The notes below the pieces were generated by a model, which worked only from the letters and a program-made list of their open reading frames with translations, made no database searches and was not told where the DNA came from. The translations under genes and the position numbers were made by a program. Below, one piece after another: positions 1 through 20,000 of a stretch of 20,000 nucleotides of DNA (position 1 is the stretch's first letter; each line of letters starts with the position of its first letter). The DNA is taken from assembly GCA_036172245.1 (NCBI GenBank), contig JAYWIR010000129.1, positions 61,850-81,849 of the forward strand. The letters are read 5' to 3'. This DNA is from Raillietiella orientalis. Lineage: Eukaryota.

Positions 1-3000
1 GTCTTCCTGGACGCTGACCTGTGTTCACGCGTCGGCAAACGGGGGAGGGTTGTGTCGACGTTGTCGGACCATTCCCGGTTAATTTTCGAGATGCGGCCTC
101 GCGACAAAGGACCGCCATCCAGGGATTGGCGTCTGCCGGGGGACTGGACGCGACTCTCAGGTGCGAAGGAACACCTTCGCGAATACCTTAGAGGCGTCAC
201 GCTCCGGAATCTCCAGGACTGGGACCTATTCAAGGAATCGGTCCGCGAGTTCTGTGAGCAGTTCCCCCTGGATCGCCTGCCCTCCGGATTCGGCGAGGGT
301 GCTCGCAACCATCAGGCCTATTTACAGGCTCGTAGGTACGAGAGAACCCCTAATGTCCGTCGCCTGGCCGAGTACCGCGCCGGGGCCGAACGCCAAGCCT
401 GGCAATCCGGGTCGGCCAGCTTGCTGGACGACCAGGGCCGGGAATGTTCGTCCCCGGCGTCGGTACGGCATCTCGTGCGGAGTTTTTATTCCTCCCTTCA
501 CGCCAGGGAGCCCCCGGATCGAAACGTTTCTCGGCGCTTGCTTCCGGATGGCACCCCGGCAATAGGGGAGGAAGAGATGGAAAGCCTCGACGAGCCTTTT
601 ACCACCGGCGAAATTCTCGCCGGTATCAAAAGGCTCAAGAGGCGTAAAGCTTCAGGGGAAGACGGCTTGCCTGCGGAGTTCTTTCAGAGCTTCGCGGAAG
701 AGCTGGCACCCCTGCTGCTTAAGTTGATCAGGCTGATCCGAGACGAAGGCGATGTTACCGCCTCGTTTCGGTCAGCCAGAGTGAGGCTCCTTCCGAAAGG
801 GGGAGACCTCAGGAATTTAAAGAACTGGCGTCCGATCACAATCGTGAATACGGACGCCACGTTGATAGCAGGGCTATGGGCTTCGCGTCTGGGGCAGGTG
901 GCAGAATCCGTAATTAGCCCGGAGCAGACTTATGCTGTTCCCGGGCGAAGTATGGATGCCAACCTCTTCTTCGCAAGCACATGGGTGCACCTGCAGAGAA
1001 GAGAGAAGAAAGGGATAGGGAAAGTCGGCAACCCCACATGGGGGCCGCCAGCCGGGCTGGGAAGGGACCCCCGGGCGGGGAAGGGGGCCCTAGCGCTCGC
1101 AGTCGATCTCCACAAGGCGTTCGACTGTGTAGACCAGGAACTTCTCTTGGAGCTCCTGGGTCGCATGGGCTTTCCACCCACCCTGATCTTCTACCTGCGC
1201 TCTTGCTGGCGGAATGCGATAATTACCGTCTTTTTCAGCGGTCAAAAGGTGTATGGCGTGCCGGTGCGGCGGGGCATAAGGCAGGGAGATAGCCTCAGCC
1301 CCCTGCTCTTCAGCACCTACTTTGAGTTGGTGCTGAGAGCGTACAGGGTGACTTTGGCTCCATTGGCGAGCTCGTGCCCCGGCACGCCCGCCGTAGCAGC
1401 GTACGCCGACGATCTTCTGCTTTTGTTGCCGATGTCCACCCCGGCAAAGGCGGTCGGAGACTTCTTCGATCTGCTCATCCGCGGGACCGGACTGCAGGTT
1501 AACAGGGCGAAGTCGTCGGTTGTGCCAATAGGTGCGGCGTGGGCAGGGCAGCAGGACTGGGTCCGTCTGGGGATCCCCACGGCGAGGTGCTTCAAGTACC
1601 TTGGTGTGCCGTTGGGGGACTACTCCCCTGCGGAAGCGTGGTCCAGCTGCCTCCAAAAAGTCCAGACGGCGATCGGCCCGTTCCTGGAAGGCGAGTTTCA
1701 CTTGCCGGAACGGGCCGCGGTTTGGAACGCCTCCGCGGCCCCCATCCTCCGCCCCTTGCTTTTTGTTTGCCCCCCCACCGTGGAATCCAAGAAGAGGACG
1801 AAGGACCTCCTCCGTATCGCCCTTTGGGGCAAGGGGAGGCCCCGAGTCCCACTGAAGGACTTGTGCGCTCCGCGTCGGGACGGCGGTCTTGGCCTCCTGA
1901 CGCTGGAGCGCGTGAGAAGCAGCGGCGGTGGCGAACCCTCGCCATCGCAGCGAAGATGTGGTGCACCCCTTGGTGCACTCCAGCCCGCCTCCTGGCCAGC
2001 CGTGTGTCCTGGTGCGATGGACTCGCGTCTTTTCTTCTCAGCCGTGGCCGGAAGATGCGAAGATGCGGCCTACTGCTCGGGCGCATGGCAACATTGGCCA
2101 AGGAGAACAGCTGGATGGTTTGCTGCCCCGCCAACTCCCCCGCCTGGCTGGAGGAAAATATTGGAACGTGGGCAGGAATTAACAAGACAAGCCACGAGAC
2201 GTGGAATCGTCTCCGATGCAGCCCCTACGCCCGCTGCACGCTGCGGAATCTCCTGGAGAGTCCAGCAAGATGCACGTGGGCAGAGACGACCTGTCTAGCT
2301 ACGGCGCTGCCCTTCCTGAAGAGGGCACTTCACAGCAGACGGACGCCAAGGTGGCAAGTCTCCTGCTGCATCGAGGGACGCGAAAAGTTAATCAGCGGCT
2401 GGACAACAGGAGAACTGGCAGACGCCACGACCCCGAGCGTCCAGCCGCGAGAACTAAGAAGATGGGGCGAGCTGCTGGCCATCCCTATGGATGTGCTGAA
2501 GTGGCCCCCGCTTCTTCAGGAATCCAGGATCCTGCCTCTTAAGTGGAAAGAGTCGGCGTTGCTGTTGTTGCATTGCGGTTTACCCTGCAACGCACGCCGC
2601 TCTCACTGGACAAGAGGAGTTGTGGATCCTGCGTGTGTCAGGTGCGAAGAGCGGGAATCGCTCTTCCACCTTATTGTGGACTGTGCTGCCCTTCGTCCCC
2701 TTTGGGAACGGTTTGGGACGATCCTCGGTCTCCCAACGGGCAGTTCCCCTAGTGCCGTTCTTCGGCCCCTCTTCGTGAAGGACGCTTTGCAGCCAGCCGC
2801 AGCCCTTGCAGCCTTGTGCTGCGTCCGAGGCATCGTGGCGGCATGGAGCGACACCAACAAGGAAGGAGTGGGTCAACACGCGAGGGATGTCTTCCCATAT
2901 GCCCAACGCTTCTTGCGAAGAGCTGCCGGATGGCCCCAACTGGGGAATATAAGGACTGACCTCGAGGGCTTCGTTCGACGGATGGGCCCTCTCCACAGCG

Positions 3001-3008
3001 AGCAGTGA
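1..3008 (+). pseudogene. E1 ORF2 (end of APE, reverse transcriptase, C-terminal zinc motif), one frameshift near 1918
   Basis: ORF 52..2298 has LSDH, KASGEDG, NWRPITIVN, DLHKAFD, GIRQGDSLSPLLF, YADD, FKYLGV, RRDGGLGL. It continues in the frame of ORF 1539..3008 (CVRCEERESLFHLIVDC). gtgagaagcagc here vs gtgaaaaagcagc in E2 shows a 1-nt deletion. Confidence 0.92.
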
Positions 3009-3220
3009 TCCCTTCCCTGCCCTCCAACCTCTTTTTGTTTGTTTCTTTTTATTTTACTTTTTGTCTTATCCCCATCCCCCTTCGCTGTCGGGGAGTGCCA
3101 CGCCGGGCTGCGTCCCGGTGTCCCGACAGGTCCTGTGTTTAGGGCCGTGGTGGGGCCTTGTACCACGCATGTAAAGTTTAATAATAAACGCCCCGGGCGT
3201 ACCCGGGTGATAACGCCGAA
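3009..3220 (+). other. E1 3' UTR: pyrimidine/T-rich tract, four predicted hairpins, AATAAA, no poly(A)
   Basis: ctgtcggg(3085)/cccgacag(3122), cgtggt(3146)/accacg(3162), gttta(3176)/taaac(3185), cccggg-cgta-cccggg (3192-3207). Confidence 0.8.
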
Positions 3221-3229
3221 GCCCTTAGC

Positions 3230-3245
3230 GAGTGGACGTGTGTTT
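3230..3245 (+). promoter_or_regulatory. Conserved element 5'-end motif GAGTGGACGTGTGTTT (candidate internal promoter)
   Basis: GGAYGTG core recurs at 8911, 11288, 15455 and 16673, each at an element start; 86 nt before the ORF1 ATG. Confidence 0.6.
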
Positions 3246-3319
3246 CCTTCGCTCCCGAGTGAGTCGACAGGAAGCGGTTTTTTGTTGTGTTGTTTAGTGC
3301 GGAACATCGTTGGTGTCCG

Positions 3320-5072
3320 ATGGCAGCGATGCCTGAGGACACCACGATGGAGGTAGGTGTGGGGGAGGCTTGCCCACCCCCACAGCCTACAGAATCAGGG
3401 GCGTCCGCCCCGGAATCGCCCTCGCCGCTAAGGGCGAGGAGCTGGAGCGCCTTGGTGGCCGCGCCGAGCGCGGAAACCATTACCGAGATGGCGGCCTACC
3501 GGGCAGCTGGGTACAAGCCCAGCTTGGTTTACCAGGTAGGCAATCTCTTTGACGGGCGAACTGCACGCGCTTTTTCGAAAGCGCTGCAGAACGCCAACGT
3601 GTTGGAAAAGGACCTTGACGGTCTATCCGTGCTAAGCGGGGGTCAGCGCGTTGAGGTTGTCTGCAAGGACATCACCTTGGCGCAAAGCTTGATAACCACC
3701 CCGCTGAACGTGGATGGACGCAAGATCCTACCAATCACGATGGACCGCTCCGTAGTGGTCCATCTGACAGGGATCACCAGCCGCATGACGCGATCTGCGT
3801 TTGATGATAAGCTGAAAAAATACGGAGAAGTTCACGCGTTATGGCCAAAGGCCACAATCTTTTATGGCTACGGTAGCCTTTTCGGAGGGCAGGCCGCCGC
3901 GCGTGTGACGGTGACGAAGGATAGTGGGATTTTCCACAAACTAGAGGTCAATGACGAAGTCGTAGACTTTTGGTACGTGGGGAAACCCCGCATTTGTGGC
4001 TACTGCAATGCAGTTAGGACACTTGCGCAAGTGGTGCCCGAACATTGTGTGCCACTTATGCGGGGAGAAGGCCACGTACTCGCCGCGTATGCCCTAAACG
4101 CCCCACTTCGGGTGCCGCCTGCTGCAAAAAGCACAGGCAAAACGCGGTAAACTGGTCGAAAGACCAAAGAGAGACTGGCCGGCAGCAGCCGCTAGCCCCT
4201 GTTCCTCCCACACAGGCGTCGGAAGAAAAAACCCTCCGAAGACGCGGGAGTCCAAGACGGCTGGCAGCTGGTCACCAAGGCCAGGAAGGGAAAAAAAGGT
4301 GCACCCCGCGGAACCCGCGAAAGCGGTAAAAAAGATAGCCGGCAAGGAGAAAAACCTGGGCCGCGCTCTAAGACCATGTGCGGGAATGTACGGTAGCACT
4401 GGAGCGCATAGCCGTTTCCGAGATTGCCACCCGGGGTGACGAGCCTTCCCTCGCCGTTTCCGCCTGCGCCCGAGGTTTCAGATGACAACCCTCTGTGCAA
4501 ACAGAGGGTGAGCCGCGCGACGCGCCTGTCGACACCGAGTACGCCGCGTTCGCAAAGGCGGCGGAGGAGCTCGCGGCCACGCTGGTGGAGCGTGAGAACC
4601 CCTCACGCAAGGCCGTGCGAAGGCCGGCTCCCGCGAAAAAGGCCCCCACAGGTGAGTCGGACCTGGGTGCCGGAAGTGCATCCTTCTCCTCGGAGGCACC
4701 CCGCAGGATGTCGGGACGCAAGTCAGGAGGCACCTCCCCTCCACCAGCGAGGAGGGGAAGCAGGAAGGTAGCGGTAGCGTGGGAATCCCGGAGTGGGAAC
4801 TCCCACGCTCGGAAGCCGTCGAGACGGCCACCTTCATGGAAGAGGGTGAGCAGGTGAGCGATGTCCTCCCTGCAGTCCCCGAGCCTGAACAGCCCGCCCC
4901 CATGGAGGAGGGCCATCAGGAAGGCGCGACCCCACCTGAGGGTGACCCGCTCGACGCGCCGTTACCCATGGAGGAGGGGGACCAGGTGCACGCAGCGCCT
5001 GACCCTCGTCCTCCACCTAGCGTTCCGCCCCAACAGGTGGCTGACGCCGCATCGCCATCTTCCCAGGAGTAA
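3320..5072 (+). pseudogene. E2 ORF1, gag-like nucleic-acid-binding protein, several frameshifts
   Basis: MAAMPED... aligns with E3 ORF1. First knuckle CGYCNAV is frameshifted at ~4015. Fragments 4495..4857 and 4779..5072 carry the tail, ending SPSSQE-TAA. Confidence 0.88.
4833..4985 (+). repeat. Three degenerate 66-nt (22 aa) PMEEG acidic repeats in the ORF1 tail
   Basis: ttcatggaagaggg (4833), cccatggaggaggg (4899), cccatggaggaggg (4965). Confidence 0.7.
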
Positions 5073-8000
5073 CAGTTGGGCTCGCCAGTCGCCGTCGTAT
5101 TCGCGCCGCCTGTTGGAACGTCAACGGGCTGCGCAACGACGGTAACATGCGAGTTACGGCCGACACCCTGCGTGAGCTCGACCTGGCCCTGCTGCAGGAG
5201 ATCCAAGTGATCACCGCGGCAGACGCCAAGGAGATCGAGACGTTCGCGGGTGGTCGGTTGCATTGGCGTTGCGGCCTCCGCAACACCTGCGGGGTCGCGT
5301 TCTTCGTGAAGCCGGCCATCGACGCTACCGTGAAGGGCGTGCGCTTCGATGACGACGTTCGGGTCGGTTAACTGATTCTCAGCTGGTCCGAATCGATCAA
5401 ACTGATCGTCACGAATGTGTACGGCTCCAGCGGTAAGCAGGGATACAGCGACCGCACCAGGCTGCTGGAATCCCTGAAGCGCGACTGGCTGGCGGACACC
5501 AACGTGCGGAAGGCTCACCTGATAGCGGGAGATTTCAATCTCCGTCTCCTAACAGGGTGAGCCAGAAACACAAGAGAACGCGATGAACGAGCTGTGCGCA
5601 GCCATGCGTGCGCGCAACTTGTCTGCGAAGAGGGGAATGGTCCGCAGCATCGACCACGTCTTCCTCCTCGCTGACCTGTGTTCACGGGTCGGCAAACGGG
5701 GGAGGGTTGCGTCGACGTTGTCGGACCATTCCCGGTTAATTTTCGAGATGCGGCCTCGTGACAAGGGACCGCCATCCAGGGATTTGCGTCTGCCGGGGGA
5801 CTGGACGCGACTCTCAGGTGCGAAGGAATACCTTCGCGAATACCTGAGAGGTGTCACGCTCCGGAATCTCCAGGACTGGGACCTTTTTAAGGAAACGGTC
5901 CGCGAGTTCTGTGAGCAGTTCCCCCTGGATCGCCTACCCCCCGGATTAGGCGAGGGTGCTCGCAACCATCGGGCCTATTTACAGGCTCGTAGGTACGAGA
6001 GAACCCCTGATGTCCGTCGCCTGGCCGAGTACCGCGCCGGGGCCGAACGCCAAGCCTGGCAATCCGGGTCGGCCAGCTTGCTGGACGACCAGGGCCGGAA
6101 ATGTTCGTCCCCGGCATCGGTACGGCATCTCGTGCGGAGTTTTTATTCCTCCCTTTACGCCAGGGAGCCCATGGATCGAAACGCATCTCGACACTTGCTT
6201 CAGGATGGCACCCCGGCAATAAGGGAGAAGGAGATGGAAAGCCTCGACGAGCCTTTTACCACCTGCGAAATTCTCGCCGGTATCAAAAGGCTCAAGAGGC
6301 GTAAAGCTACAGGGGAAGACGGCTTGCCTGCGGAGTTCTTTCAGAGCTTCGCGGAAGAGCTGGCAGCCCTGCTGCTTAGTGGATCAGGCTGATCCGAGAC
6401 GAAGGCGATGTTCCTGCCTCGTTTCAATGGCCAGATGAGGCTCCTGCCGAAAAGGGGAGGACCTCAGGGATTTAAAGAACTGGCGTCGGATCACGATCGT
6501 GAATACGGACGCCAAGTTGATTGCCGGGCTGTATGCGTCGCGTTTGGGGCAGGTGTCCAATTCCATAATTAGCCCGGAGCAGACTTATGCTGTTCCCGGG
6601 CGAAGTATGGATGCCAACCACTTCTTCGCATGCACATAGGTGCACCTGCAGAGAAGAGAGAAGAAAGGGATAGGGAAGGTCGGCAACCCCACATTGGGGC
6701 CGCCAGCCGGGCTGGGAAGGAAATCTCGGGCGGATAAGGCGGCTATAGCGCTCGCAGTCGATCTCCACAAAGCGTTAGACTGTGTAGACCAGTAACTACT
6801 CTTGGAGCTCCTGGGTCGCATGGGCATTTTACCCTTCCTGATTTCCTACCTGCGCTCTTGCTGGCGGAATGCGATAATTACCGTCTCATTCAGCGGTCAC
6901 AAGGTGCATGGCATGCCGGGGCGGCGGGGCATAAGGCAGGGCGATAGCCTCAGCTCCCTGCTCTTCAGCACCTACTTTGAGTTGGTGCTGAGAGCGTACA
7001 GGGTGACCCTCGCCCCATTGCCGAGCTTCTGCCCCGGCACGTCCGCCGTTGCAGCGTACGCTGATGATCTTCTGCTCTTGTTGCCAATGTCCTCCCCGGC
7101 TAAGGCGGTCGGAGACTTCTTCGTTCTGCTCAGCCGCGGGACCGGACTGCAGGTTAACAGGGAGAAGTCGTCGGTTGTGCCAATAGGTGTGGCTTGGGCA
7201 GGACAGCAGGACTGGTTCCGTCTAAGGATCCCCTCGGCGAGGTGCTTCAAGAACCTTGGTGTGCCGTTTGGGGACTACTCCCCTGCGGAAGCGTGGTCCA
7301 GCTGGCTCCAAAAAGTCGAGGCAGCGATCGGCCCGTTCCTGGAAGGCAAGTTTCACTTGCCGGAACGGGCCGCGGTTTGGAACACCTTCTCGGCCCCCAT
7401 CCACCGCCCTTTGTTTTTGTTCGCACCCCCACCTTGGAATCCAAGAAGAGGACGAAGGACCTCCTCCGTATCAACCTTTGTGGCAAGGGGAAGCCCCGAG
7501 TCCCACTGAAGGACTTGTGCGCTCCGCGTCGGGACGGCGGTCTTGGCCTCCTGACGCTGGAGCGCGTGAAAAAGCAGCTGCGGTGGCGAACCCTTGCCAT
7601 CGCAGCGAAGATGTGGAGCACCCCTTGGTGCACGAGGGCCCGCCTCCTGGCCAGCCGTGTGCCCCGGTGCGATGGACTCGCGTCCTTTCTTCTGAGCCGT
7701 TGCCGAAAGATGCGAGGATGCGGCTTACTCCTCAAGCGCATGGCAACATTGGCCAAGGAGAACAGCTGGATGGTTTGCTGCCCCGCCAACTCCCCCGCCT
7801 GGCTGGAGGAGAATATTGGAACTGGAGGAGAATATTGGAACGTGGGCAGTAGTTAACCAGAGAAGCCACGAGACGTGGAATCGTCTCCCATGCAGCCCCT
7901 ACGCCCGCTGCACGCTGCGAAATCTCCTGGAGAGTCCAGCAAGATGCACGTGGGCAGAGACGACCTGCCTAGCTACGGCGCTGCCCTTCCTCAGGAGGCA

Positions 8001-8681
8001 CTTCACAGCAGACGGACGCCAAGGTGGCAAGTCTCCTGCTGCATCGAGGGACGCGAAAAATTGATCAGCGGCTGGACAACAGGAGAACTAGCCGACGCCA
8101 CGACCCAGAGCGTCCAGCCGCGAGGATTATTAAGATGGGACGAGCTGCTCGCTATCCCCAGGGATGAGCTGAAGTGGCCCCCGGTGATGAAAGAATCCAG
8201 GATCCTGCCCCTTAAGTGGCAAGAGTCGGCGTTGCTTCTGTTGCACTGGGGTCTACCCTGCAACGCGCGCCGCTTCCACTGCACGAGGGGAGCTGTGGAT
8301 CCCGCGTGTGCCAGGTGCGGGGAGCGGGAGTCGCTTCCCCACCTTATTGTGGATTGTGCTGCCCTCCGACCCCTTTGGGAACGGTTTGGGACGACCCTCG
8401 GGCTACCTACAGGCAGCACCCCCAGAGACGTTCTTCGGCCCCTCTTCGTGAAGGACACACTGCAGCCAGCCGCAGCCATCGCAGCTTTTTGCTGCGTCCG
8501 AGGCATCGTGGCGGCATGGAGCGACGGCAACAACGAAGGAGTGTATCCACAGGCGAGGGATGTCATCCCGTATGCCAAACGCTTCTTGCGAAGAGCTGCC
8601 GGATGGCCCCAACTGGGGAATATGCAGACTGACCTCGAGGGCTTCGTTCGACGGATGGGCCCTCTCCACAGCGAACAGTGA
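5072..8681 (+). pseudogene. E2 ORF2 (APE + RT + Cys/His motif), multiple stops and frameshifts
   Basis: CWNVNGL (5111), LLQE, NVYG, AGDFN, SIDH, LSDH, GIRQGD, YADD, GGLGL, CARCGERESLPHLIVDC; stops at 5369, ~6637 and ~6793. Confidence 0.92.
7803..7840 (+). repeat. Perfect 19-bp tandem duplication ctggaggagaatattggaa x2
   Basis: Single copy at the homologous E1 position (~2148-2166); causes a frameshift in E2. Confidence 0.92.
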
Positions 8682-8893
8682 TCCCTTCCCTGCCCTCCAA
8701 CTTCTTTTTGTTTGTTTCTTTTTATTTTACTATTTGTCTTATCCCCATCCCCCTTCGCTGTCGGGGAGTGCCACGCCGGGCTGCTTCCCGGTGTCCCGAC
8801 AGGTCCTGTGTTTACGGCCGTGGTGGGGCCTTGTACCACGCATGTAAGGTTTATTAACAAACGCTCCGGGCGTACCCGGGTGATAACACCGAA
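8682..8893 (+). other. E2 3' UTR, near-identical to the E1 3' UTR
   Basis: Same hairpins at offset +5673; terminal hairpin tccggg-cgta-cccggg at 8865-8880; AACAAA in place of AATAAA. Confidence 0.8.
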
Positions 8894-10208
8894 TCCCCTT
8901 TGGGGAGAGAGGATGTGCTTTTCCTGCGCTCCGCCTGCGTGGCAAGGCGAGTGGTTTTCCCTTGAGTGGTTTGTGCATGCACATCGTCGGTGTCGGATGG
9001 CAGCGTTGCCAGAGGACAATGCGATGGAAGTAGGCGTGGGGGAGGCTTGTTCGCCCCCACAGCCCACTGGATCAGGGGCATCCGCCTTGGAATCGTCCCC
9101 GGCGACGCCGAGGTCATGGAGCGCCATGGTGGCTGCGACAAGCGTGGAAGCCATGGCCGAGATGGAAGCCTACAAACAAGCGGGGTATAAACCCTCGCTA
9201 GTCTACAAGGTAGGCAACCTTTTTGATGGGCGAACTGCACGCGCCTTTACGAAGGCGCTGCAGGACGCCAATATTCTCGAACAAGATCTTGACGGCCTCT
9301 CCGTCCTCAGCGGCGGGCAGCGGGTCGAGGTGGTATGCAAAGATATCACCTTGGCCCAACGCCTGATCACCGACCCGCTGATCGTTGATGGTCGGAAAAT
9401 CTTAACGGTGACGATGGACCGCTCGGTAGTGATCCATCTCACTTGGATCTCCAGTCGCATGACTAGGTCAGCGGTTGGAGATCAGTTGCGAGAGCACGCA
9501 GAAGTGCACGCGTTGTGGCCGAAGCCCACGATTTTCCAAGGCTACAATATCCTTTTAGGGGGTCAAGCTGCGGCGCGTATCACCGTAAACGAGGGTGGTG
9601 CGCTTCCCCACAAGCTGGAGGTCTGCCAAGAAGCGGTGGACCTCTGGAACGTGGGGAAACCCCAATTTTGTCGCTACTGCAATGCAGTAGGGCACCTACG
9701 AAAAAGGTGCCCGAAAATTGTGTGCCACCCATGCGGGGAAAAGGATCACGTTCGCGTGAGCCCCAAGCGCCCCACCCCGGTGCCCCCTGTCGCCAAAAAG
9801 GCGCAGGGAAAACGTGGAAAACTGGTAGAAAGACCAGTTCGCGAAAATGGCCGTTTCCAACTGCCAGCCTCCCTTCCTCCCGTACAGACGTCGGAGGAAA
9901 TAGCTCCCGTGGACGCGGGAATGGAGGAGGGTTGGCAGCTGGTTCAGGCCAGAAAAGAAAAAAAAAAGAAATTAATGCCAGAAGAAAAGTCGGAGAAGAG
10001 AACTGCCGGCAAGAAGAAAAAAGCCGCGCCGCTTTCAAAAAAAAAACAACTTCGCAAAGGCTCGGTGGCACTGGAACGCTCAGTCGTTCCGGCCGAGTCC
10101 GCACGCGGCAATGTTCGCGGAACAGCTGATGCGGACGCGATGAATACTCGCGTGGACGAGCCTATTCTATGTTTAGAGGGTGAGACGCGAGACTCGCGCG
10201 CCGACTGC

Positions 10209-10320
10209 CAGGACGCCGCGCTCCATAAAGTCGCGGAGGAGCCCGCGGCAACGGTCGCTGCTGGCGAAGACGCGGCCTTCGAGAAAGCGGCGGAGGAGCT
10301 CGCAGCAACGCTCGCCGAGC
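10209..10320 (+). repeat. Degenerate 57-nt (19 aa) tandem duplication QDAALHKVAEEPAATV / EDAAFEKAAEELAATL
   Basis: Units start at 10209 and 10266; E2 and E6 have one copy. Confidence 0.75.
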
Positions 10321-10571
10321 GCGAAACCCCGTCGCGCAAGGGCGTAAGCAGGCCAGCTACGACGAAAAAGGCCCACGCAGGTGAGTGCGACCTGGGGGCC
10401 GGAATCGCCTACTCCTCCTCGGAGGCACCCCCCAGGAAGTCGGGACGCAAGTCCCAGAAACCCAGGAGGCGCCTCCCCTCCAGCAGCGAGGAGGAGAAGC
10501 CGGAAGGCAGCGGAAGCGTGGGAATCCCGGAGGGGGAACTCCCACGCCCGGAAGCCGTCGAGTCGGCCACC

Positions 10572-10724
10572 CCCATGGAGGAGGGTGAGCAGGGGGGTGA
10601 AGGCCTCCCTGCAGTCGCGGAGCCTGAGCAGCCCGAACCCATGGAGGATGGCGAACAGGTAGGCGCGACTCCACCTGAGGGTGATCCGGCCGACGCGCCG
10701 GCACCGATGGAGAGGGAGGAACAG
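10572..10724 (+). repeat. Three degenerate 66-nt PME(E/D/R) repeats in the E3 ORF1 tail
   Basis: Units at ~10572, 10638 and 10704, same period as in E2. Confidence 0.7.
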
Positions 10725-10812
10725 GTGCCTCAGTACCTGTCCCTCCTCCCCCTCCACCTAGCGTCCCGCTTCAGCAGGAGGCGTACGCTGCATCGCCGTT
10801 TTGCCAGGACTA

Positions 10813-11277
10813 ATACCTGGGCTCGCCAGTCGCCGTCGGATTATCGCGGCCTGTTAAGATGTCAACGGGCTGCGCGACGACGGCCACAGGCGAGATACGG
10901 CCGACACCCTGCGTGGGCTCGACCTGGCGCTGCTGCAGGGGATCCACGTGATCTGTGCGGCGGATGTCCAGGAAATCGAGACCATCGCGGGGGGTCGGTT
11001 GTGCTGGCAATGCGGTTGCCGCAACACCTGCGGGGTCGCGTTCTTCGTGAAGCCGGCCATCGACGCTGCCGTAAAGGGCGTGCGGTTTGATGACGACGGT
11101 CGGATCGGCCAGCTGTTTCTCAGCTGGTCCGACTCTATCGACCTAATCGTCACAAACGTGTATGGCCGCAGCGGCAAACAGAGGTACCGCGACCGCACCA
11201 GGTTGCTGGAATCCCTGAAGCGCGACTGGCTGGCGTATACCAATGTGCGAAAGGCTCACCTGATAGCAGGAGACTTT
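10813..11277 (+). pseudogene. E3 ORF2 N-terminal APE fragment
   Basis: C*DVNGL (TGG to TAA at 10855), LLQG, CGVAFFVKP, NVYG, AGDF. Confidence 0.88.
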
Positions 11278-11350
11278 GCGGACGTACGGACGTGTTTTTT
11301 TTCGCTCTCGTCTCCGTGCTTTCATCCGCTTCATCTTGGTGTCGTGAATT

Positions 11351-13281
11351 TTGACGACGAAGTCGAGCCAACTGCAAGCCACTGAAGTTGGAGGTATAGC
11401 GTCCGGATCTGCAGTCGCGGAAGCGACGGCCGCCTCCTCTTCGTCTGCCCCGCCAATGGAGAGGAGCTTTGCTGACGTTGCTGCCACAGCAGCCGTCGAA
11501 GGGGGACCACAATACGAGTCGATGTTGCGGGCATACGTAGCCCAAGGCTATAGACCGGCTCTCCGATATAAGATGAGTGGTTTTCTTTATGCGCGCGACG
11601 GGAATCAGTTCAACGATGAACTGACCCGTGTTGGCGTGCGGCAGGAGGACCTCCTCGCCATTATGCCCGTAAAAGATATGGGATTTTTCAAGGTGCGTTG
11701 CAAAGACGCTGCACTTGTGCAACGCTTGCTGCGCATCCCGTTGTCGATTCGTGGCCAGAAATCTTCCCGGCCGTCATGGACGACTCCTTGGAGGCAGAGA
11801 TTTCCGACATCCAGTCGGAAATCTCCGACATTGATATTCGGAACGCGCAGGCGAAATTCGCCACGGTCCATGCGCTGTGGAGGGAGCGTAGCAGCCTCAA
11901 GGACTTCCCGTCCATACACAGCGGAGTCGCTGAAGTCCGGCTTACAATGCCCAATTGCCGTCTGCTGCCCACCAAACTACAGGTGAAAGACACGGTCGTT
12001 CACCTGTGGTTCGTGATCAAAGTAAGAACGTGCGAGCAATGCGGGAAGGAGGGGCATTGTTTGGATGAATGCCCCTCTAGGAAATGCCGTGATTGCAAAC
12101 TTTCCGGGCACCAATTGAAAAATTGCCCGGATCTTTTGCGAAAAAAGGCAGCCGCGGAGCTCCATTTTAAAGAACAAAGCGCGGATAAAAAGAAAAAATC
12201 CGTGAAAAACCTGAGGACCCCACGGCAGAAATTCCGTAAAAACGCGAGGCGGAATGTCGCCCCAAAGCAGAAGGAAACCTCGCACGCGAAGCCCTTCGCG
12301 CCCCCTCTCGCTACAAGAGAGTTGCAAAAGAAAGGGTGCGGGGAATCCAAGGCAATGGTAAGTCCCCTTACGCGAAATAGCTGTCCTTCCCAAGCACGCC
12401 CGGCTCTCTCGGAGTTTGGGCAACCGGCGGGGACGCCAATGGACAACGGCGGTAAGGACACTTCCAGTACCGTCAGATCCATTTCTTCACCTCCTGCAGG
12501 GGCTGCAAAGCCCGAATCGGGTAAGAAGGGTTGTGCCGTGTCGACTTCGAAAGTCGGCAAAATAAAATCCGCGTCCCAGTCCAACACCGCGAAAGCGGAG
12601 AAACATCTCACGCCGTCGCAGTCGGAGAGCAAGCTCTCGGCTAGCGCGGATGAAATGCCAACGAAGGGATTAAAAGCCTTTACGATGGCAGCGCCCATGA
12701 CGAGCGTGTCGAAGCCATCGAAAGTGCACCCGTCCAAAGACGCGGATGGCTTCAAAGATGGCAATGGAGCACAAGCTCCATTTACGGCGCCACGCGAAGT
12801 GAGAAACCGTAATGAAGTAAAGAAGACTTCAGCAAAGGTCCCTCGTGCAACTGCGCGTGAGCACGCTGAGAACGCGCGCGCCGGGAAAGCAGCCGTCACC
12901 AAAAGCGATGCCCTTGTGACGGAAAATGACAACAGGACAGCTGTCAATCCAGCAGAACCTGTCACTACTTCGCGGAAGGCCAAAACCCGATCGAACATGC
13001 GCCGGTCGGACTCCGAAATGGATGCCGTGCCGATCACCGAGACGACGACAACTCGTTCAAAAGCGTGTGCGCGTTGATCAAAACTAGGCAGCCAGGCAAC
13101 GCACGCCGCGAAGCAACGCGAAGTCTTCACGTAACCCGACAGGGTCAAGCCTGGCGTGGAGGCATTACATGCATGCAGCACGACGGAGGACGGTGGCGAC
13201 CGTCCCCTCCAGCCAGTCGTGCTGCTCGCCGTCTCCTCGCCGGATAAAGCGAGCAAAAAGCCGCCACCTTCCCAGCAGAAA
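11351..13281 (+). pseudogene. E4 ORF1, gag-like with two CCHC knuckles; frameshift ~11758, premature stops at 13075 and ~13132; start codon uncertain
   Basis: RSFADVAA and AYVAQGYRPALRYK match family A/C RSWSAxVAA and AYxAxGYxPxLxYK; CEQCGKEGHCLDEC, CRDCKLSGHQLKNC. The same frame runs on to PPPSQQ at 13261-13278. Confidence 0.82.
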
Positions 13282-14997
13282 TGCGTGGAATCGCGTCTTC
13301 TCGTCGTCTGTCCGTAACGTTTCGGAACGTGAACGGACTTTAGAACGACGAGAAGAGGCGATTAGTCGCCAACGCCCTGCGCCCCTTCGACCTCACGCTC
13401 CTGCAGGAGATTCACGTAATCTCCGACGAGCCGGCAGCCGAAATCGAGGAGCGCGCAGGCGGAACGCTACATTGGCGATGCGGCGGCGCACACACGTGCG
13501 GCGTCGCGTTCCTCGTAAGAGGAAAAATGGCGGAAGCGGTGCGTAGTGTTCGTTTCGATGACGACGGACGGATAGGCCAACTTGTCATCAAGTGGTCCGA
13601 GTCCATCGATCTCGTCGTTACGAACGTCTACGCGCCGAGTGGCTCTCGCTACCTCGAAGAAAGAGTACCTTACTTCGGTGAGGTGCAGAGCCACTGGCTC
13701 AACAACTTTGGCTTCCAAGTGGCGCCTCTCGTCGCTGGGGACTTCAACGTCCGCTGCTCTCCGACGATTGGAGCCGCCCGAGGGAGCGCGCGCTGCACGT
13801 CGAGATGTGCCCGTCCGTGCACGCCGCCAACTTGATGGTCAGCTAACCTGGAATGGAAAGATCGCTTGATCACGTTTTCCTCGATGAAAACCTGCATTGG
13901 CGTGTGGGTAGGAGAGGAAGATTGTTGACTAGGCTTTCTGACCACCACAGGTTGGAGTTTGTGATCCTTTCGCCAGGCAGGGGGCCTTTGTGGCAAAGCT
14001 GGAGGATGCAGGCGGACTGGCTCAGCCAACCGAAGGCTGAGGAGCATCTACGTGGACACCTCCGAGGCTTTGCCATTCAAGAAATTGCGGACTGGGACGA
14101 TCTCAAAAGATCTGTTCGCGAGTTCTGCCGCCAATTCCCCTTGCACCGGCTTCCACGCAGTTTCGGAGAGAGCGTTGTTCACAGTAGAGACTTTCTGCAG
14201 GCCCGCACGTTTTCGAGACGCGCGGATGTCGCGCGTCTAGCGGAGTACAAGACGAGGGCCGAGGGCCAGGTCTGGCAGTCCGGAGCAGCATGCCTGTTGG
14301 ACGACAAGGGCCAGGAATGTTCGGCCCCAGCCGAAGTACGCCGCATTGTGAGACGCTACTACTCCTCGCTCTACGCGGAATCCCCGACGGAGGATATTCT
14401 TTCTGAGATACTCCTGTCTCAGGATGCTCGTGTTGTCGGCGAGGAGCAACGCTAACGTCTCAACGAGCCCTTCGCGGCGGATGAATTTTCGTCCGCCATC
14501 GCTGGGCTGAAGAGACGAAAGGCGCCAGGCGAGGATGGGCTCCCTGCAGAGTTTTATCAGTGCTTTGCAGTGGAGCTCATTCCCTTGATGCTGAGACTCG
14601 CCACGCTGATGAGGGAATCCGGGAATGTCCCGGATTGCTTCCGCTCAGCGAAGGTGCGTCTCCTGCCGAAAGGCGGAGACTTGCGTCAACTTAACAACTG
14701 GCGTCCGATCACCTTGGTGAACTCGGACGTCAAGTTGTTTTCCAAGCTGTGGGTCGCGCGGTTAGGAAGTATCTCGGAATCTGTGGTGAGCCCGGAACAA
14801 ACCTACGCGGTTCCGGGACGATCCATGGAGGCGAACATCCTTTTCGCGCGTACATGGATGCAGCTGCAGGAAGTTGTGGCGCAGCAAACCAGGCTGCTGA
14901 GAAAGTCACTGCCGCAGGCAAGAAGAACAGGCGCCGATGGCAGGAGGGAACGCCAGGTGCCTTGGCGGTCGCGGTCGATCTTCACAAGGCGTTCGAT
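13281..14997 (+). pseudogene. E4 ORF2 (APE + partial RT), degenerate
   Basis: ATG 13281 MRGIASSRRLSVTFRNVNGL*, LLQE, NVYAP, AGDFN, SLDH, LSDH, KAPGEDG, NWRPITLVN, DLHKAFD. Confidence 0.88.
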
Positions 14998-15447
14998 TTT
15001 CACCCGGATTTCTCCGAGTCGTTTATTAAAAAAATAAACTTCGTAAACAAATTATTGATGGCTGTGGCAATGTTCCAGCCAGAAGCTAACAACCACGGCG
15101 CCTGCCAATTCACCGGTTTCTAGACCGGTACGGTCCACCAAGGCAGCAGGGGAAAGGGGAAAAACAAAAAAAATAAACGAAAAAAAACAAAACAAAGGGT
15201 GGGAGGGAACAAGAAGGGATCACTGTTGCTGCTGGGGCCGCATCATTCCTCTCAGGATGCTGGCAAGCTCTTGTTTTTTGTGAACATCCAGGTGGGGCCA
15301 TCGCGACGCCCTCCTCAGGAATTCGGAGGCGCACTGGATGGCTTTCTGATCGGTAGGTCCTCCCGTCGCCGTGCTCCAGGCGGCGACGATCCCACGAAGG
15401 CAGCACAAGGCTGCTATCGAAGACGCTGGCTTGCGACGGCGCTCTTG
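14998..15447 (-). mobile_element. X: inverted 3'-terminal fragment of a related element (ORF2 C-terminus + 3' UTR)
   Basis: Minus strand encodes PASSIAALCCLRGIVAAWS...FLRRASRWPHL...QQ*, homologous to the E1/E2 ORF2 end, followed by TGATCCCTTC, a T-tract, hairpins and aataaacgactcggagaaatccgggtgaaa. Confidence 0.9.
15220..15445 (-). pseudogene. ORF2 C-terminal ~70 codons of fragment X
   Basis: 3' part of track ORF 15220..15555; CCLRGIVAAWS motif. Confidence 0.85.
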
Positions 15448-15448
15448 A

Positions 15449-16664
15449 GAGGGTGGACGTGCTTTTGAGGTGCTCTGCGTTTTTCTCGCGAGTGTTTTCC
15501 GAGTTTTCAGGTTTGAGCGGTTGTTCCTGGGCAGGGATGCCCGAGGACGCCGCAAAGACGGCGGAGGGGGGCGAGCGAGCCTCGTCCCCCCAGCCCATGG
15601 ATGTGGGGGCCATCTCCCCCACGGAATCGTCCCCCGCCCCGGCGAGGGCTTGGAGCGCGGTGGTGGCGGCGCCTGCGCCGCCCCTCGCAGAGGAACAGCG
15701 GGCTTACATGGCCGACGGGTATAACCCGGCCTTGTTATACAAGGTAGGTGGCCTGTACTCTTCCGCGTTATTACGGTCTTTCGCGGCCGAGTTCAAGAAA
15801 TTAAAAGTCCCGGAGTACGAAGTCCTCGGACTTTCGGTTAGGAGTGGCGGGCAGCTGGTCGAGCTGAACTGCAAGTCTGCAGGGATGGCTCAGCAGCTGT
15901 TCCGCCTGCCGGTGACCGTGAACGGTCGAAGAATCTTCCCGTTCACGGCGGACAACTCCATCGTTGTCCACCTCACCGGTATTACCATGAGAATGGCTAA
16001 GACTGCCGTTCGCGAGAGTTTGGAGAAGTTCGGGACGGTCCACGCGTTGTGGGCAAAACCCAATGTACTGGGTTACACCAGGGCATTTAGTGGTTACGCC
16101 GCTGCCCGCGTGATCGTCCGAGCCGAGGGTGGGCTACCCCACAGACTGCAGTTCGGGGAGGAGGAGATCGACCTGTGGTATGTGGGGAAACCCGTATACT
16201 GCGGCTTTTGCCAGGTGTCGGGGCATTTAAAAAAGAAATGCCCCAACATCGTGTGCTTGGGCTGTGGGGAGAAGGGGCACATCAGGCGGATGTGCCCCAA
16301 CCGAAAAAGGTCCGTTCCGTCAGGCGCGAGGAAGGAAGAGACGCCGAAGGAAAAGGACCGAAGCCAACAACTGGCAGAACCCCGCCCTGCCGACCAACCC
16401 GCTACTCAGGCATCCACCAGCGAACAACCAGCTGGAGAAAGCGCCGAGAACGAGGAAGGTTGGCAAAAGGTAGAAAGGAAGAAGCCCCAGAAGAAGGAGG
16501 CAAAAAAGATAAACAAGGCGGTGCCGAAAAAGCAGAAACCGGTCGTCCGCGCTTGTACGGTGAAGATCGAACGCGTCTCGATCGCCAGAGCCGTAAAGAA
16601 AGTAACGGTAAAGGCGATCGATACCGTCGATCCTGAGCCGGTCGTGCCTGCAGTGACGTCACCG
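15449..16664 (+). mobile_element. E5: 5' part of a family C element, interrupted in ORF1 by E6
   Basis: gagggtggacgtgctttt start; ends at gcagtgacgtcaccg, whose homologue in E6 (18027-18041) continues further. Confidence 0.88.
15537..16664 (+). CDS. E5 ORF1, gag-like zinc-knuckle protein, open but 3'-truncated
   Basis: MPEDAAK..., CGFCQVSGHLKKKC and CLGCGEKGHIRRMC intact. Confidence 0.85.
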
Positions 16665-16756
16665 CGGTGAGTGGACGTGTTTTTTCGGTGCTCCGGAAAA
16701 TCGTCTGTTTTTGCTGGTGTTTGTGGGTTTTTCAGCGCGGTTGTTCCTGGGCAGAA

Positions 16757-18502
16757 ATGCCTGAGGACGCCGCTAAGGCGGTGGAGGGGGGCGAGCGAGC
16801 CTCGTCCCCCCAACCCATGGATGTGGGGGCCAGCTCCCCCACGGATTCGTCCCCCGCCCCGGCGAGGGCTTGGAGTGCGGTGGTGGCGGCGCCCGCGCCG
16901 CTTCCCACAGAGGAACAGCGGGCCTACGAGGCCCACGGATACAACCCGTCCCTACTCTATAAGGTAGGTGGGTTGTACTCGCCGGTAATGCTCCGCACGT
17001 TCGCCGCGGAATTTAAAAAGTTGAGAGTGCCCGAAGAAGAAGTTCTCGGCCTCTCCGTGCGCAGTGGCGGTCAGCTCGTCGAGCTGAACTGCAGAACTGC
17101 AGGAATGGCACAGCAATTGCTGAGATGCCCGGTGACTGTGAACGGGAGAAGGATTTTCCAGTTCACAGCCGACAAATCCATCGTCGTCCACCTCACGGGC
17201 ATAACGATGAGGATGGCGAAGAACGCCGTACGAGCAGAACTCGAGAAATACGGCACCGTCCACGCTCTGTGGGCTAAGCCCAACACCCTGGGTTATACCA
17301 GGGCGTTCAGTGGCTATGCCGCCGCGCGTGTGACGGTCCGAGAGGAAAGTGGTTTACCCCACCGACTGCAGGTCGATGATGAATACATCGACCTGTGGTA
17401 CATAGGGAAACCTAAATTTTGTGGAAATTGCGAGGCCATCGGGCACCTCAAACGGAGGTGCCCTAACATCGTGTGCCTCCGATGTGGTACCAAGGGACAC
17501 GTACGAAAGGTGTGCCCTTCTCGTTTTGCGTCCACTCCTGCTGTCAACAAGAAAACCGAGTCGCCACAGGTGCAGGACAAACAGCATCCCCCATCGGGTG
17601 AAAGCTCGCAAGCAGGCGAGAAACCGACGCCGGAGGAAGAAAAGGCGGAGGATGGCGAAGCTGTCGCCGAAAACAGCTGGAAGTTGGTGAAGAAAAAGGA
17701 GAGCAAGGGGAAAGGTACGGCCCCCAAGAAAACGGTAAAAACGGTGGCGAAAAGCGTCCGTCGTTCCACCGTAAACATCGATCGCTTTACCGCGAAGGCT
17801 TCCTCCAGCAAGCCGTCGATCGATACCGCAGCTGCGGCATCGATCGATAGAGCGGTTCCGGCCCCGTCCACCGAAATCGCTACGGTAGCGATCGATATCG
17901 CGGCACCTGTTGCCGCGATCGATACTATTGTTCCAGTTCCGTCCGCTGGAAGTGTTGTAGTGGCGAGTTGAAGCTCAGCCGCTGCTGTTCCGATCGATAG
18001 CTCGCCGGTTGCAGCTATCGATTCGGCAGTGACGTCACCGGACTCGCCAACAGGCGGCGAAGTCTGCGATGACGCGGAACGCATCTCCGATGCAACGTTC
18101 GCGCAAGCCGCGGAAGAGTTGGCTGCCTTGTTAAGGCAGCCCGTCAAGGCCGAGAAGAAGGCCGTTCGACGCCCGGCTACGGCGAAGGACCCAGAAAACA
18201 GCGAGTCCGACGCCGAAACCGGGAACTCGTCGACCGTAGGGTTGCCGAAAAGAAAAAATAAAAGTTCAACGGGAGCTCGTAGGCGTGCTGTCCCCACTCA
18301 GGTAGAGGTGGAAATGGCATCCGACAGCGAAGAGGAGTCAATGTGCGTTCCAGCGTGCGACTCTGCGCCTAAGAGCATCCTATTCCAACTGTTGACACAG
18401 TCCTCGGCCGACGGAGCACACCAAACTCCTTCCGAATCCGTCGGCGTGGACGCGGAACACCCGTTTCCTGAAAGGGAGACGGTTTCCTCCACACCACCAT
18501 AA
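16757..18502 (+). pseudogene. E6 ORF1 with one in-frame TGA at 17969-17971
   Basis: CGNCEAIGHLKRRC, CLRCGTKGHVRKVC; ORF 18029..18502 is in the same frame and has DATFAQAAEELAALL. Confidence 0.88.
17774..18025 (+). repeat. Degenerate ATCGAT-core coding minisatellite (xIDxA peptide repeats)
   Basis: Seven clusters of atcgat/gatcgat in ~250 nt: NIDR, SIDT, SIDR, AIDI, AIDT, PIDS, AIDS. Confidence 0.7.
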
Positions 18503-18510
18503 ATAAACCT

Positions 18511-20000
18511 ATGGGTGGGCTCGCCTGCTGCCGTCGCTTGCGAATTACTTGTTGGAACGTCAACGGGTTGAGCAGCGACGGCAAGAGGCGAGACGCTGTG
18601 GAGGAACGGAACAGATCACTCCTGCGGAGTGGCCTTTTTGCTGAAGCCGTCCGTCGAAAACTCACTGCGTAGTGCACGGTTCGACGGGGACGGTCGAGTT
18701 GGGCAGCTTGTTCTCAAGTGGTCCGACTCGATCGACCTCGTGGTCATGAACCTGTACGCTCCGGTGGGCAGCCACAGGGCCGAGGAACGCACTGCGTTCT
18801 TCGAATCCCTGCGGCGAGACTGGTTGGCCGAAGCAGGCGTGCGAAGGGCGCACCTCATTGCGGGCGATTTCAATCTCCGCCTGCTGGCAGGTGCGCCCAA
18901 CCGACGAGCACAGCTGGTCAACGAGTTGTGCGCAGCAATGAATGCGCGCAACTTGTTGGCCGGTGATGCCGGGAGAGATCGGAACATCGACCACATGTTC
19001 CTCGACAACCACCTGTGCACGCGGGTGGGAACTCGAGGAACGCTCCCGGCAGAGCTGTCCGACCATCCACGGCTCGTGCTCGAGTTACATCCGCGCAATA
19101 AGGGCCCTCCCCTGAAAACATGGCGCCTGCCAGGGGATTGGTTGCGCCTCGAAGGAGCGGCGGAACATCTACGCTCCTTCCTGCGAGGATTCCAGCTTCA
19201 GACGCTCGCGGACTGGGACGAAATGAAGTGCTCAGTCCGCGAGTTTTGCGACCAGTTTCCCCTGGAACGTCTTCCGCCGGGCTTCGGCGATGGGGTCAGG
19301 AACGAGCGGGCCTACCTTCAGGCCCGCCGGTATTCCAGGCGTCCCGACGTCCGTCGCTTGGCGGAATTCGAAGCTGAGGCGGAGAGGCAGGCCTGGCAGT
19401 CAGGCTCGGCCTGCTTGCTGGACCATCAGGGCCAAGAACACTCCAGCCCAGCTCAGGTAAGCCGCATCGTGCGGGAGTTTTATTCCTCCTTCTACGCGCC
19501 GTTAACACCGGAGCGCCATTTAGCGCAGCGCCTGCTGCCGGATGGCCTCCCCGCGCTCAAGGAGGAGGATCGTTTCAGGTTGGCAGAACCGTTCACGATG
19601 GTGGAGGTCGTCTCCGCCATCAGCAGGCTGAAGAATAGGAAGGCACCAGGGGAGGACGGCCTGCCCGCGGAGTTTTACCATCGCTTCGCGCCAGAGCTGG
19701 CCCCCCTGGTGCTCAGGTTAAGTACGCTGATCCGCGAACACGGCGAAGTTCCCGCCTCGTTCCGGTCAGCAAAAGTATGTCTCCTGCCGAAGTCAGGAGA
19801 CTTACGCAACATTGGCAACTGGCGTCCCATCACAGTGGTGAATGCGGACGCAAAGTGCATGCCAAGTTGTGGGCTGAGCGTTTGGGGCGGGTGGCCGCTT
19901 CCGTGATCAGTCGGGAGCAGACCTACGCTGTTCCCGGACGAAGCATGGAGTCAAACCTGCTCCTCGCCAGCACATGGTGGCAGTTGCGACAACGCGTTGC
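18511..20000 (+). pseudogene. E6 ORF2 (APE + start of RT); ~104-nt deletion near 18605 and frameshift near 19857
   Basis: MGGLACCRRLRITCWNVNGL, LQE segment missing, then NLYAP, AGDFN, NIDH, LSDH, KAPGEDG, NWRPITVVN, EQTYAVPGRS. Confidence 0.9.

Follow-up and report, generated by a model that had tools for sequence, protein, structure and literature searches.

A candidate natural hairpin-less L1-type endonuclease in three related LINE families of a Raillietiella orientalis contig

Can an L1-type endonuclease (EN) be maintained by selection without the beta-hairpin through which such enzymes engage their DNA target? This question is raised by a 20,000-nucleotide (nt) stretch of Raillietiella orientalis DNA (contig JAYWIR010000129.1 of assembly GCA_036172245.1, positions 61,850 to 81,849 of the forward strand; hereinafter, the window), in which the ENs encoded by several long interspersed nuclear elements (LINEs) have a short segment between two catalytic aspartates. 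Structural and mutational studies of L1, TRAS1 and R1Bm regard the beta-hairpin as a property of LINE ENs in general that is needed for activity and shapes the cut site. Maita et al. (2007, PMC1919474) report that the hairpin is conserved in all LINE ENs with a determined structure and probably shared by LINE ENs at large; in the ENs of TRAS1 and R1Bm (PDB 1WDU and 2EI9), it contributes to sequence-specific cleavage (PMC1919474, PMC1950540). The best reading of the window, drawn from sequence comparison and structural modeling, is that its elements derive from a natural, selected L1-type EN that lacks this hairpin. The fold and the catalytic core of LINE ENs of the apurinic/apyrimidinic endonuclease (APE) type are known; the putative natural L1-type EN without the hairpin is what appears to be new here.

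A short Asp-to-Asp segment shared by three families

Decayed L1-type LINEs from at least three related families, A (elements E1 to E3), B (E4) and C (E5 and E6), are stacked on the same strand in the window; their second open reading frames (ORF2) are 64-69% identical at the DNA level between families in the self-comparison of the window. In E6, the EN remnant (18550..19099, + strand; Pfam Exo_endo_phos, 28.6 bits; NVNGL in another frame), with an open frame at 18572-19906, contains the motifs GDFN (18863-18874), NIDH (18983-18994) and LSDH (19055..19066, + strand), the last being the counterpart of S228-D229-H230 in human L1. The Asp codons of GDFN (18866) and NIDH (18989) are 123 nt, or 41 codons, apart, and the segment that they delimit (18866..18991, + strand) consists of one helix and a linker of 9 residues, with no hairpin. 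In family A, the EN of E2 (5105..5801, + strand) is complete except for a TAA (5369-5371) and a +1 frameshift near 5545-5553; its GDFN, IDH and SDH motifs start at 5528, 5649 and 5721, respectively, and the two Asp codons (5531 and 5652) are 121 nt apart, that is, 40 codons and the one extra base of the frameshift. In family B, the EN of E4 (13281..14017, + strand) has a stop after NVNGL (13341-13343), a frameshift at about 13763-13790 and a TAA at 13844-13846; GDFN, LDH and SDH start at 13737, 13865 and 13937, and the Asp codons (13740 and 13868) are separated by 128 nt, or about 42-43 codons, across the frameshift and the TAA. The distance from the second Asp to the His of SDH is 75 nt (25 codons) in E6, and likewise 75 nt in E2 and E4. 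These codon positions agree with a previous sequence-only reading of the window, which had reported a spacing of 41 in E6, equally short segments in E2 and E4, and 25 residues from the Asp to SDH.

The same reading had invoked D145, D205, H230 and T192 of human L1, and aligning a vertebrate-like relative (P0157) with chain 8uw3_A gives the same numbering, with Y115, D145, N147, T192, S202, D205 and H230 recovered. The EN of human L1 ORF2p (PDB 1VYB, 7N8K, 7N8S and 9HDR) is the best structural match of the window EN and shares with it the catalytic positions and the 25-residue spacing between D205 and H230, at an identity of about 20%. The human enzyme differs, however, in having 60 residues between D145 and D205, compared to 40-43 in the window, and the window EN has no counterpart of the human betaB6 strand with T192, of the loop 193-202 or of S202.

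The short segment is also exceptional among L1-like relatives. The comparators come from two database searches with the window ORF2 and consist of 160 proteins, which together with the E6 translation make 161 sequences; the representative search returned 10,167 proteins with E up to 0.001, dominated by the start of the reverse transcriptase (RT), and the best 150 of the 10,167 were taken. Among the 161 sequences, 113 were kept (112 comparators and E6) that contain GD-x-N followed by DH 55-150 residues downstream, a filter that is not biased against short forms because E6 passes it. The comparators were picked by their likeness to the window ORF2, and other LINE clades are covered through the literature. 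The catalytic columns contain Asp, Asp and His in all 112 comparators. The spacing between the two Asp residues ranges from 47 to 74 (median 63), is 55 or less in five proteins and is below 47 in none, so that the 40-43 residues of the window fall under the comparator minimum (n=112); the spacing between Asp and His is 22-30 (median 25). Within the segment, a D-x-aromatic-R motif is present in 95 of the comparators, a later T/S-aromatic pair in 93 and both in 82. Neither was detected by a motif scan in the E6 or E2 segment, and the E4 segment, judged by eye, is no different, in accord with the original claim that the D-x-W/Y-R...T-W/F stretch is absent. E6 has D-A-G-R at the place of the D-x-W-R of the relatives, and nothing similar is found in families A and B. 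The D-A-G-R sequence is possibly a vestige of this motif; if so, the distance from the motif Asp to the catalytic Asp would be 8 residues in E6, compared to 23-44 (median 26) in the comparators.

All of this could in principle be the outcome of decay, with independent deletions in dead copies or an artefact of alignment and frame. Stops or frameshifts are indeed found in every copy, in two cases within the segment itself, and E6 carries a deletion elsewhere in the EN (at about 18595/18596, a 104-column gap in the DNA alignment) that removed the region of the catalytic Glu. Additional evidence comes from a search of public sequencing runs, which yielded one DNA run (X1) with 0.23 of the sampled words and listed no RNA run. 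Three X1 contigs, with a loose end at 18596, carry the stretch that is missing from E6, and the deletion of about 104 nt is accordingly private to this copy. In contrast, the short segment has the same boundaries and nearly equal lengths (121, 123 and 128 nt) in three families that are only 64-69% identical, and among the X1 contigs listed, two that extend from 18963-18966, one family A-like and one of another type, are also in the short form, with no inserted or deleted letters listed between 18596 and 19400. Outside this listing, X1 may contain hairpin-bearing copies. No choice of frame can hide a hairpin because there are only 121-128 nt between the Asp codons. The three-family alignment, the spacing and the X1 contigs already contradict the decay explanation, which can be considered extremely improbable. 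The short segment goes beyond chance or copy-specific decay because three families share it and its spacing lies under the comparator minimum.

Equivalents of human L1 N14, E43, Y115, D145, N147, D205, D229 and H230 are all present in E2 and E4. The catalytic Glu, within LLQEI, is kept in these two copies, deleted in E6 and replaced by Gly in E3, so the earlier statement that all catalytic positions are retained in the three families stands for E2 and E4 and fails for E6. The remaining EN copies are fragmentary. That of E3 (10858..11276, + strand) contains a stop in addition to the Glu to Gly replacement and is cut within GDF by the 5' end of family B; that of E1 (1..100, + strand) runs from just past IDH through SDH and is truncated by the start of the window.

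Predicted fold and selection

The complete E2 read-through matches Exo_endo_phos (PF03372) with 44.3 bits (cut-off 24.5) over profile positions 3-225 of 225, and the partial ENs from E6, E4 and E2 reach 28.2-28.6 bits, with 28.2 bits for the N-terminal part of E4. This read-through, with an X at the stop and one frame step, was modeled with AlphaFold2 from a 76-row alignment, resulting in a mean predicted local distance difference test score (pLDDT) of 89.9 and a predicted template modeling score (pTM) of 0.88; a typical relative processed through the same pipeline as a control (P0121) reached a pLDDT of 92.3. The E2 model comprises a strand at 136-143 that ends with G-D, a loop, a helix at 154-167, a short strand or bridge at 169-171, a coil at 172-182 (pLDDT about 77) and a strand at 183-188 that starts with the catalytic Asp. 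In the control, the corresponding elements are strands at 136-142, 177-179, 193-195, 198-200 and 203-208 and helices at 165-174 and 180-184, with the strands 193-195 and 198-200 forming the hairpin, at the place of which the E2 model has the coil 172-182. Because the model has this coil where the control has a helix and two strands, no other residues appear to build an equivalent hairpin in the window EN.

In a Foldseek search, the best matches of the E2 model were human L1-EN structures (7n8k_B, E 1.2e-13; template modeling scores 0.76-0.77). Alignment of the model with 1vyb_A using VIA-align gives a Z-score of 23.9 with a root-mean-square deviation of 2.2 A over 203 residues (model 1-216, chain 10-238), and the human L1-EN entries score between 23.4 and 24.2. 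A weak phmmer match to 1VYB (E 0.08) aligns query residues 5-158 with 14-160 of the chain and 174-216 with 196-238, leaving a gap of 15 residues in the E2 query versus 35 in the human enzyme. When the alignments are combined, the missing part corresponds approximately to human L1-EN residues 186-203; in addition, the loop after GDFN is about three residues shorter than in human L1. The E6 fragment by itself yields only weak phmmer matches to ExoIII among PDB chains, limited to the N-terminal part. The E2 model is a complete predicted L1-EN-like four-layer alpha/beta sandwich with one edge strand fewer.

According to Repanas et al. (2007, PMC1950540), the loop anchors T192 and S202 are well conserved among metal-dependent phosphohydrolases, and hydrogen bonds link T192, D205 and H230 in human L1-EN. 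As shown by Miller et al. (2021, PMC8565326), the loop enters the minor groove with P197 and H198 and, like its counterparts in APE1 and DNase I, forms one wall of the cleft for the cut strand. TRAS1 and R1Bm, compared by their published descriptions, encode APE-type LINE ENs with the same catalytic core as the window EN; unlike the latter, both possess the beta-hairpin. The nearest natural parallel is found in the ENs of plant RTE elements, in which the same hairpin is two residues shorter, a difference that was reported as notable and as a possible cause of altered cleavage preference (PMC6007223), compared to the roughly 16-20 residues absent from the window EN. An engineered parallel is the L3G variant of human L1-EN, with the loop replaced by three glycines, which is likewise an L1-type EN without the protruding hairpin loop. 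This variant retains both strands and T192, whereas the form in the window is natural, also lacks one entire strand and has been maintained by selection. The open literature on the betaB6 hairpin yielded no description of a natural hairpin-less LINE EN, as far as the accessible parts of these papers go, with subscription papers and Repbase outside this scope.

Selection was assessed between families from the ratio of nonsynonymous to synonymous differences per site (pN/pS), by the Nei-Gojobori method; because synonymous sites are near saturation, all ratios are upper bounds. For the N-terminal part of the EN, pN/pS is 0.45 (three pairs, 82-85 codons; Fisher p 1e-5 to 3e-8) and for the C-terminal part, it is 0.41-0.49 (52-83 codons; p 1e-4 to 4e-8), compared to 0.39-0.43 for the linker and the start of the RT. 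Thus, the EN is under purifying selection between families, as strong as that on the RT start. The helix of the short segment is well kept between families A and C, and the linker of 8-9 residues that replaces the hairpin is variable. The constraint, the kept helix and the short forms in X1 imply that the short form arose before the three families split and was passed on by replicating lineages. Within family A, pN/pS varies by region, with 0.22 in the N-terminal part of the EN and 0.65 in the linker and RT.

Probable activity of the short enzyme

The scenario that best accounts for these observations is that the common ancestor of families A, B and C already possessed an APE-type EN shortened by about 16-20 residues. 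Missing from it would be a short helix that follows the L-x-D strand, the betaB6 strand that bears the conserved Thr (T192), the loop of the hairpin and the first part of betaB5, including S202; the full catalytic core (N, E, Y, D-N, D and S-D-H) remains, in an L1-EN-like sandwich. Selection retained the short form during the divergence of the families and, therefore, the domain was in use. The predicted EN most likely still hydrolyses the phosphodiester bond and starts target-primed reverse transcription. In L1-EN, APE1 and DNase I, the missing element enters and widens the minor groove and makes up half of the cleft for the cut strand; with the hairpin gone, weak binding of ordinary duplex DNA is therefore to be expected. 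The choice of site would then come from elsewhere, such as DNA that is already distorted, nicked or single-stranded, other parts of ORF2p or ORF1p, or chromatin. We infer, with moderate confidence, that the enzyme is active and engages its target through something other than the hairpin. The original proposal of a minimal endonuclease gains support from the lack of a substitute hairpin in the model, the rarity of the spacing among the 112 L1-like relatives and the purifying selection; the two observations named in advance as refuting it, an equivalent hairpin built from other residues and a short spacing that is common, were both looked for and not found. The altered structure-, chromatin- or partner-guided specificity of the same proposal, and its link to self-nesting, are conjectural.

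Several observations weigh against this interpretation. The EN copies in the window (E2, E3, E4 and E6) are all pseudogenes, with no intact copy among them. The model was built on a frame-stepped, X-containing read-through with an alignment that consists mostly of hairpin-bearing relatives, and in VIA, archaeal ExoIII homologues (Z-score 23.1) and APE1 (22.3) match it nearly as well as L1-EN does, so that the fold alone does not separate a LINE EN from apurinic/apyrimidinic endonucleases. Searches for relatives of this EN were negative, with none found among 2898 candidates in longer proteins for the E6 fragment, among 680 candidates of near-length proteins for the E2 read-through, in 80 candidate stretches of a viral scan or in 271 from prokaryote genomes. 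The Asp-to-Asp segment by itself shows no significant constraint (pN/pS 0.63, p 0.13, 33 codons). Furthermore, in human L1, the T192V mutant retains 5% of retrotransposition and is an unstable protein, and the L3G variant shows 0% retrotransposition and 10% plasmid nicking (PMC1950540). By analogy, a natural form that lacks both the loop and T192 may be nearly inactive.

Because the human loop-deletion mutants lose retrotransposition (PMC1950540), the possibility of a nuclease with little or no activity has to be taken seriously. The domain would then have a structural role in ORF2p, and the elements, making no nick of their own, would use breaks, nicks, replication intermediates or chromosome ends that already exist within their own arrays; the head-to-tail and nested same-strand copies in the window resemble arrays that arise by end addition, and the lack of significant constraint on the hairpin region fits this possibility as well. 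Nevertheless, E2 and E4 retain the catalytic N, E, Y, D, N, D and SDH, the EN as a whole is constrained as strongly as the RT start, and conservation of all catalytic residues in three families is not what a structural role alone would predict. Altogether, a dead EN appears rather improbable. A related candidate, a second nuclease domain in ORF2 that would serve as a substitute, was rejected given that Pfam detects only the EN, the RT and a weak zf-RVT.

Nested elements, relatives and target choice

The + strand of the window (54-65% G+C per kilobase) is full of coding sequence of retrotransposons without long terminal repeats. Family A units E1, E2 and E3 are arranged head to tail with a spacing of about 5.66 kb, as indicated by self-comparison (1-4297 versus 5658-9965, 87%; 4541-5535 versus 10270-11276, 83%). 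Over 1-11276 (+ strand), family A repeats with a period of about 5657 nt (83-87% identity), the junctions between units being homologous as well. This order may reflect either repeated precise insertion or tandem duplication of the unit. Family B (E4) begins at 11277 and its 5' end interrupts the EN of E3 within the GDF motif; in family C, E5 begins at about 15450 and E6 at about 16669, with the 5' end of the latter interrupting the first open reading frame (ORF1) of E5. Insertion into own copies is thus present in the window (B in the EN of A; the second C element in the ORF1 of the first; A head to tail), and the view of the sequence-only reading that elements of several families are nested in each other is upheld by the self-comparison and by the nested and head-to-tail junctions.

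All five visible 5' ends, from the three families, contain GGACGTG followed by a T-run (3234-3245, 8911-8922, 11288-11299, 15455-15466 and 16673-16684, + strand), where 0.71 would be expected and none of 200 shuffles reaches five. This shared motif points to transcription from a defined start and to insertion at full length instead of 5' truncation. The 5' junctions are at unrelated places, namely, the EN GDF codon, the ORF1 tail and the ORF2 C-terminus. There is only one clear 3' junction in the window, so that almost no nick sites are readable. It belongs to a reversed fragment of a fourth related family (about 15001-15420, - strand), which consists of the last ~65 ORF2 codons and a 3' untranslated region (UTR) that aligns with that of family A; its 3' tail is AAAA only, and this end abuts the KAFD codons of the E4 RT. 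The family A 3' UTR, of about 220 nt (3009-3233 and 8682-8910, + strand), is T-rich at its start and contains a TGTAAA...AATAAAC region and a CCCGGGTGATAA stretch. No poly(A) or simple-repeat tail is present at the family A 3' ends, where the TGTAAA...AATAAAC region meets the next element directly. TGTAA is the usual polyadenylation signal in green algae.

ORF2 encodes about 1,185 residues (sum of reading frames) in the order Exo_endo_phos EN, RVT_1 RT (80 bits) and C-terminal zf-RVT (20.5 bits); because the latter score is under the cut-off of 27.5 bits, the C-terminal Cys/His motif is putative. Among solved chains, the RT is most similar to that of L1 ORF2p (E 3.6e-41), compared to 5.3e-14 to 1e-9 for R2-type proteins, and the nearest database proteins to ORF2 are EN and RT proteins with zf-RVT. 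In ORF1, zf-CCHC scores 21.0 and 22.4 bits in family C and 18.5 bits, under the cut-off, in family A; CCHC zinc knuckles in ORF1 are also typical of plant and Tx1-type L1 elements. The N-terminal half of ORF1 and the zinc knuckles are conserved between families, unlike the C-terminal halves (4150-4960, 9700-10750, 12100-13080, 16400-16640 and 17700-18500, + strand), which are long low-complexity tails, charged or Ala/Pro/Ser-rich, and differ greatly between families.

The nested organization bears on the possibility that the short segment is a normal trait of an algal or protist L1 clade, such as Zepp or Zepp-like elements, that is catalogued but has gone unremarked, in which case there would be nothing new here beyond the description. 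Zepp and ZeppL of green algae are L1-type LINEs that accumulate by insertion into their own copies (PMC3446292, PMC8226300, PMC11005252), and nested same-family clusters with about 60% G+C, like those in the window, match the published Zepp clusters (PMC3446292, PMC8226300). Likened by the published descriptions only, both form self-nested clusters and have similar base composition (61% G+C in Zepp); they differ in that Zepp arrays consist mostly of 5'-truncated 3' ends (PMC8226300), whereas all five visible 5' ends in the window are full-length, with the terminal motif. Moreover, the family is almost absent from protein databases, so that the comparator set cannot include its true sisters. 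The only close ORF2 relative that appeared, P0003 (73% identity), contains the RT without an EN. The top database match, P0002, is a 1555-residue gene model in which partial RT repeats from an unrelated L1-like element occur four times in tandem; it was rejected as an EN-bearing relative, being a prediction artefact, as was a metagenome locus (L001), a chance match on a bacterial contig whose opposite strand carries a protease-like gene. On the other hand, none of the 112 comparators comes close to the short spacing, the papers on the betaB6 hairpin and on R1Bm treat the hairpin as general to LINE ENs, and a shortening by a mere two residues in plant RTE elements was deemed reportable (PMC6007223). 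An unremarked clade trait therefore seems unlikely, if less so than a dead enzyme.

Returning to the active hairpin-less enzyme, a far-reaching and doubtful extension is that this LINE lineage shed the DNA-reading hairpin and handed over the choice of target, perhaps to pairing with its own copies or to their chromatin marks, so that the EN would cut only DNA that is presented to it and would build self-nested, possibly centromeric arrays. If this were true, the enzyme would itself be a minimal nuclease scaffold, available for retargeting. If the elements are related to the centromeric Zepp-like LINEs of green algae, they could shed light on the way in which the latter locate their own arrays. 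Should the enzyme turn out to be dead, it would be a natural case of endonuclease-independent LINE insertion. In the reading favored here, a natural hairpin-less EN that selection maintained while three families split would reveal how small this enzyme can be and still work, and would provide a test case for moving target choice off the nuclease.

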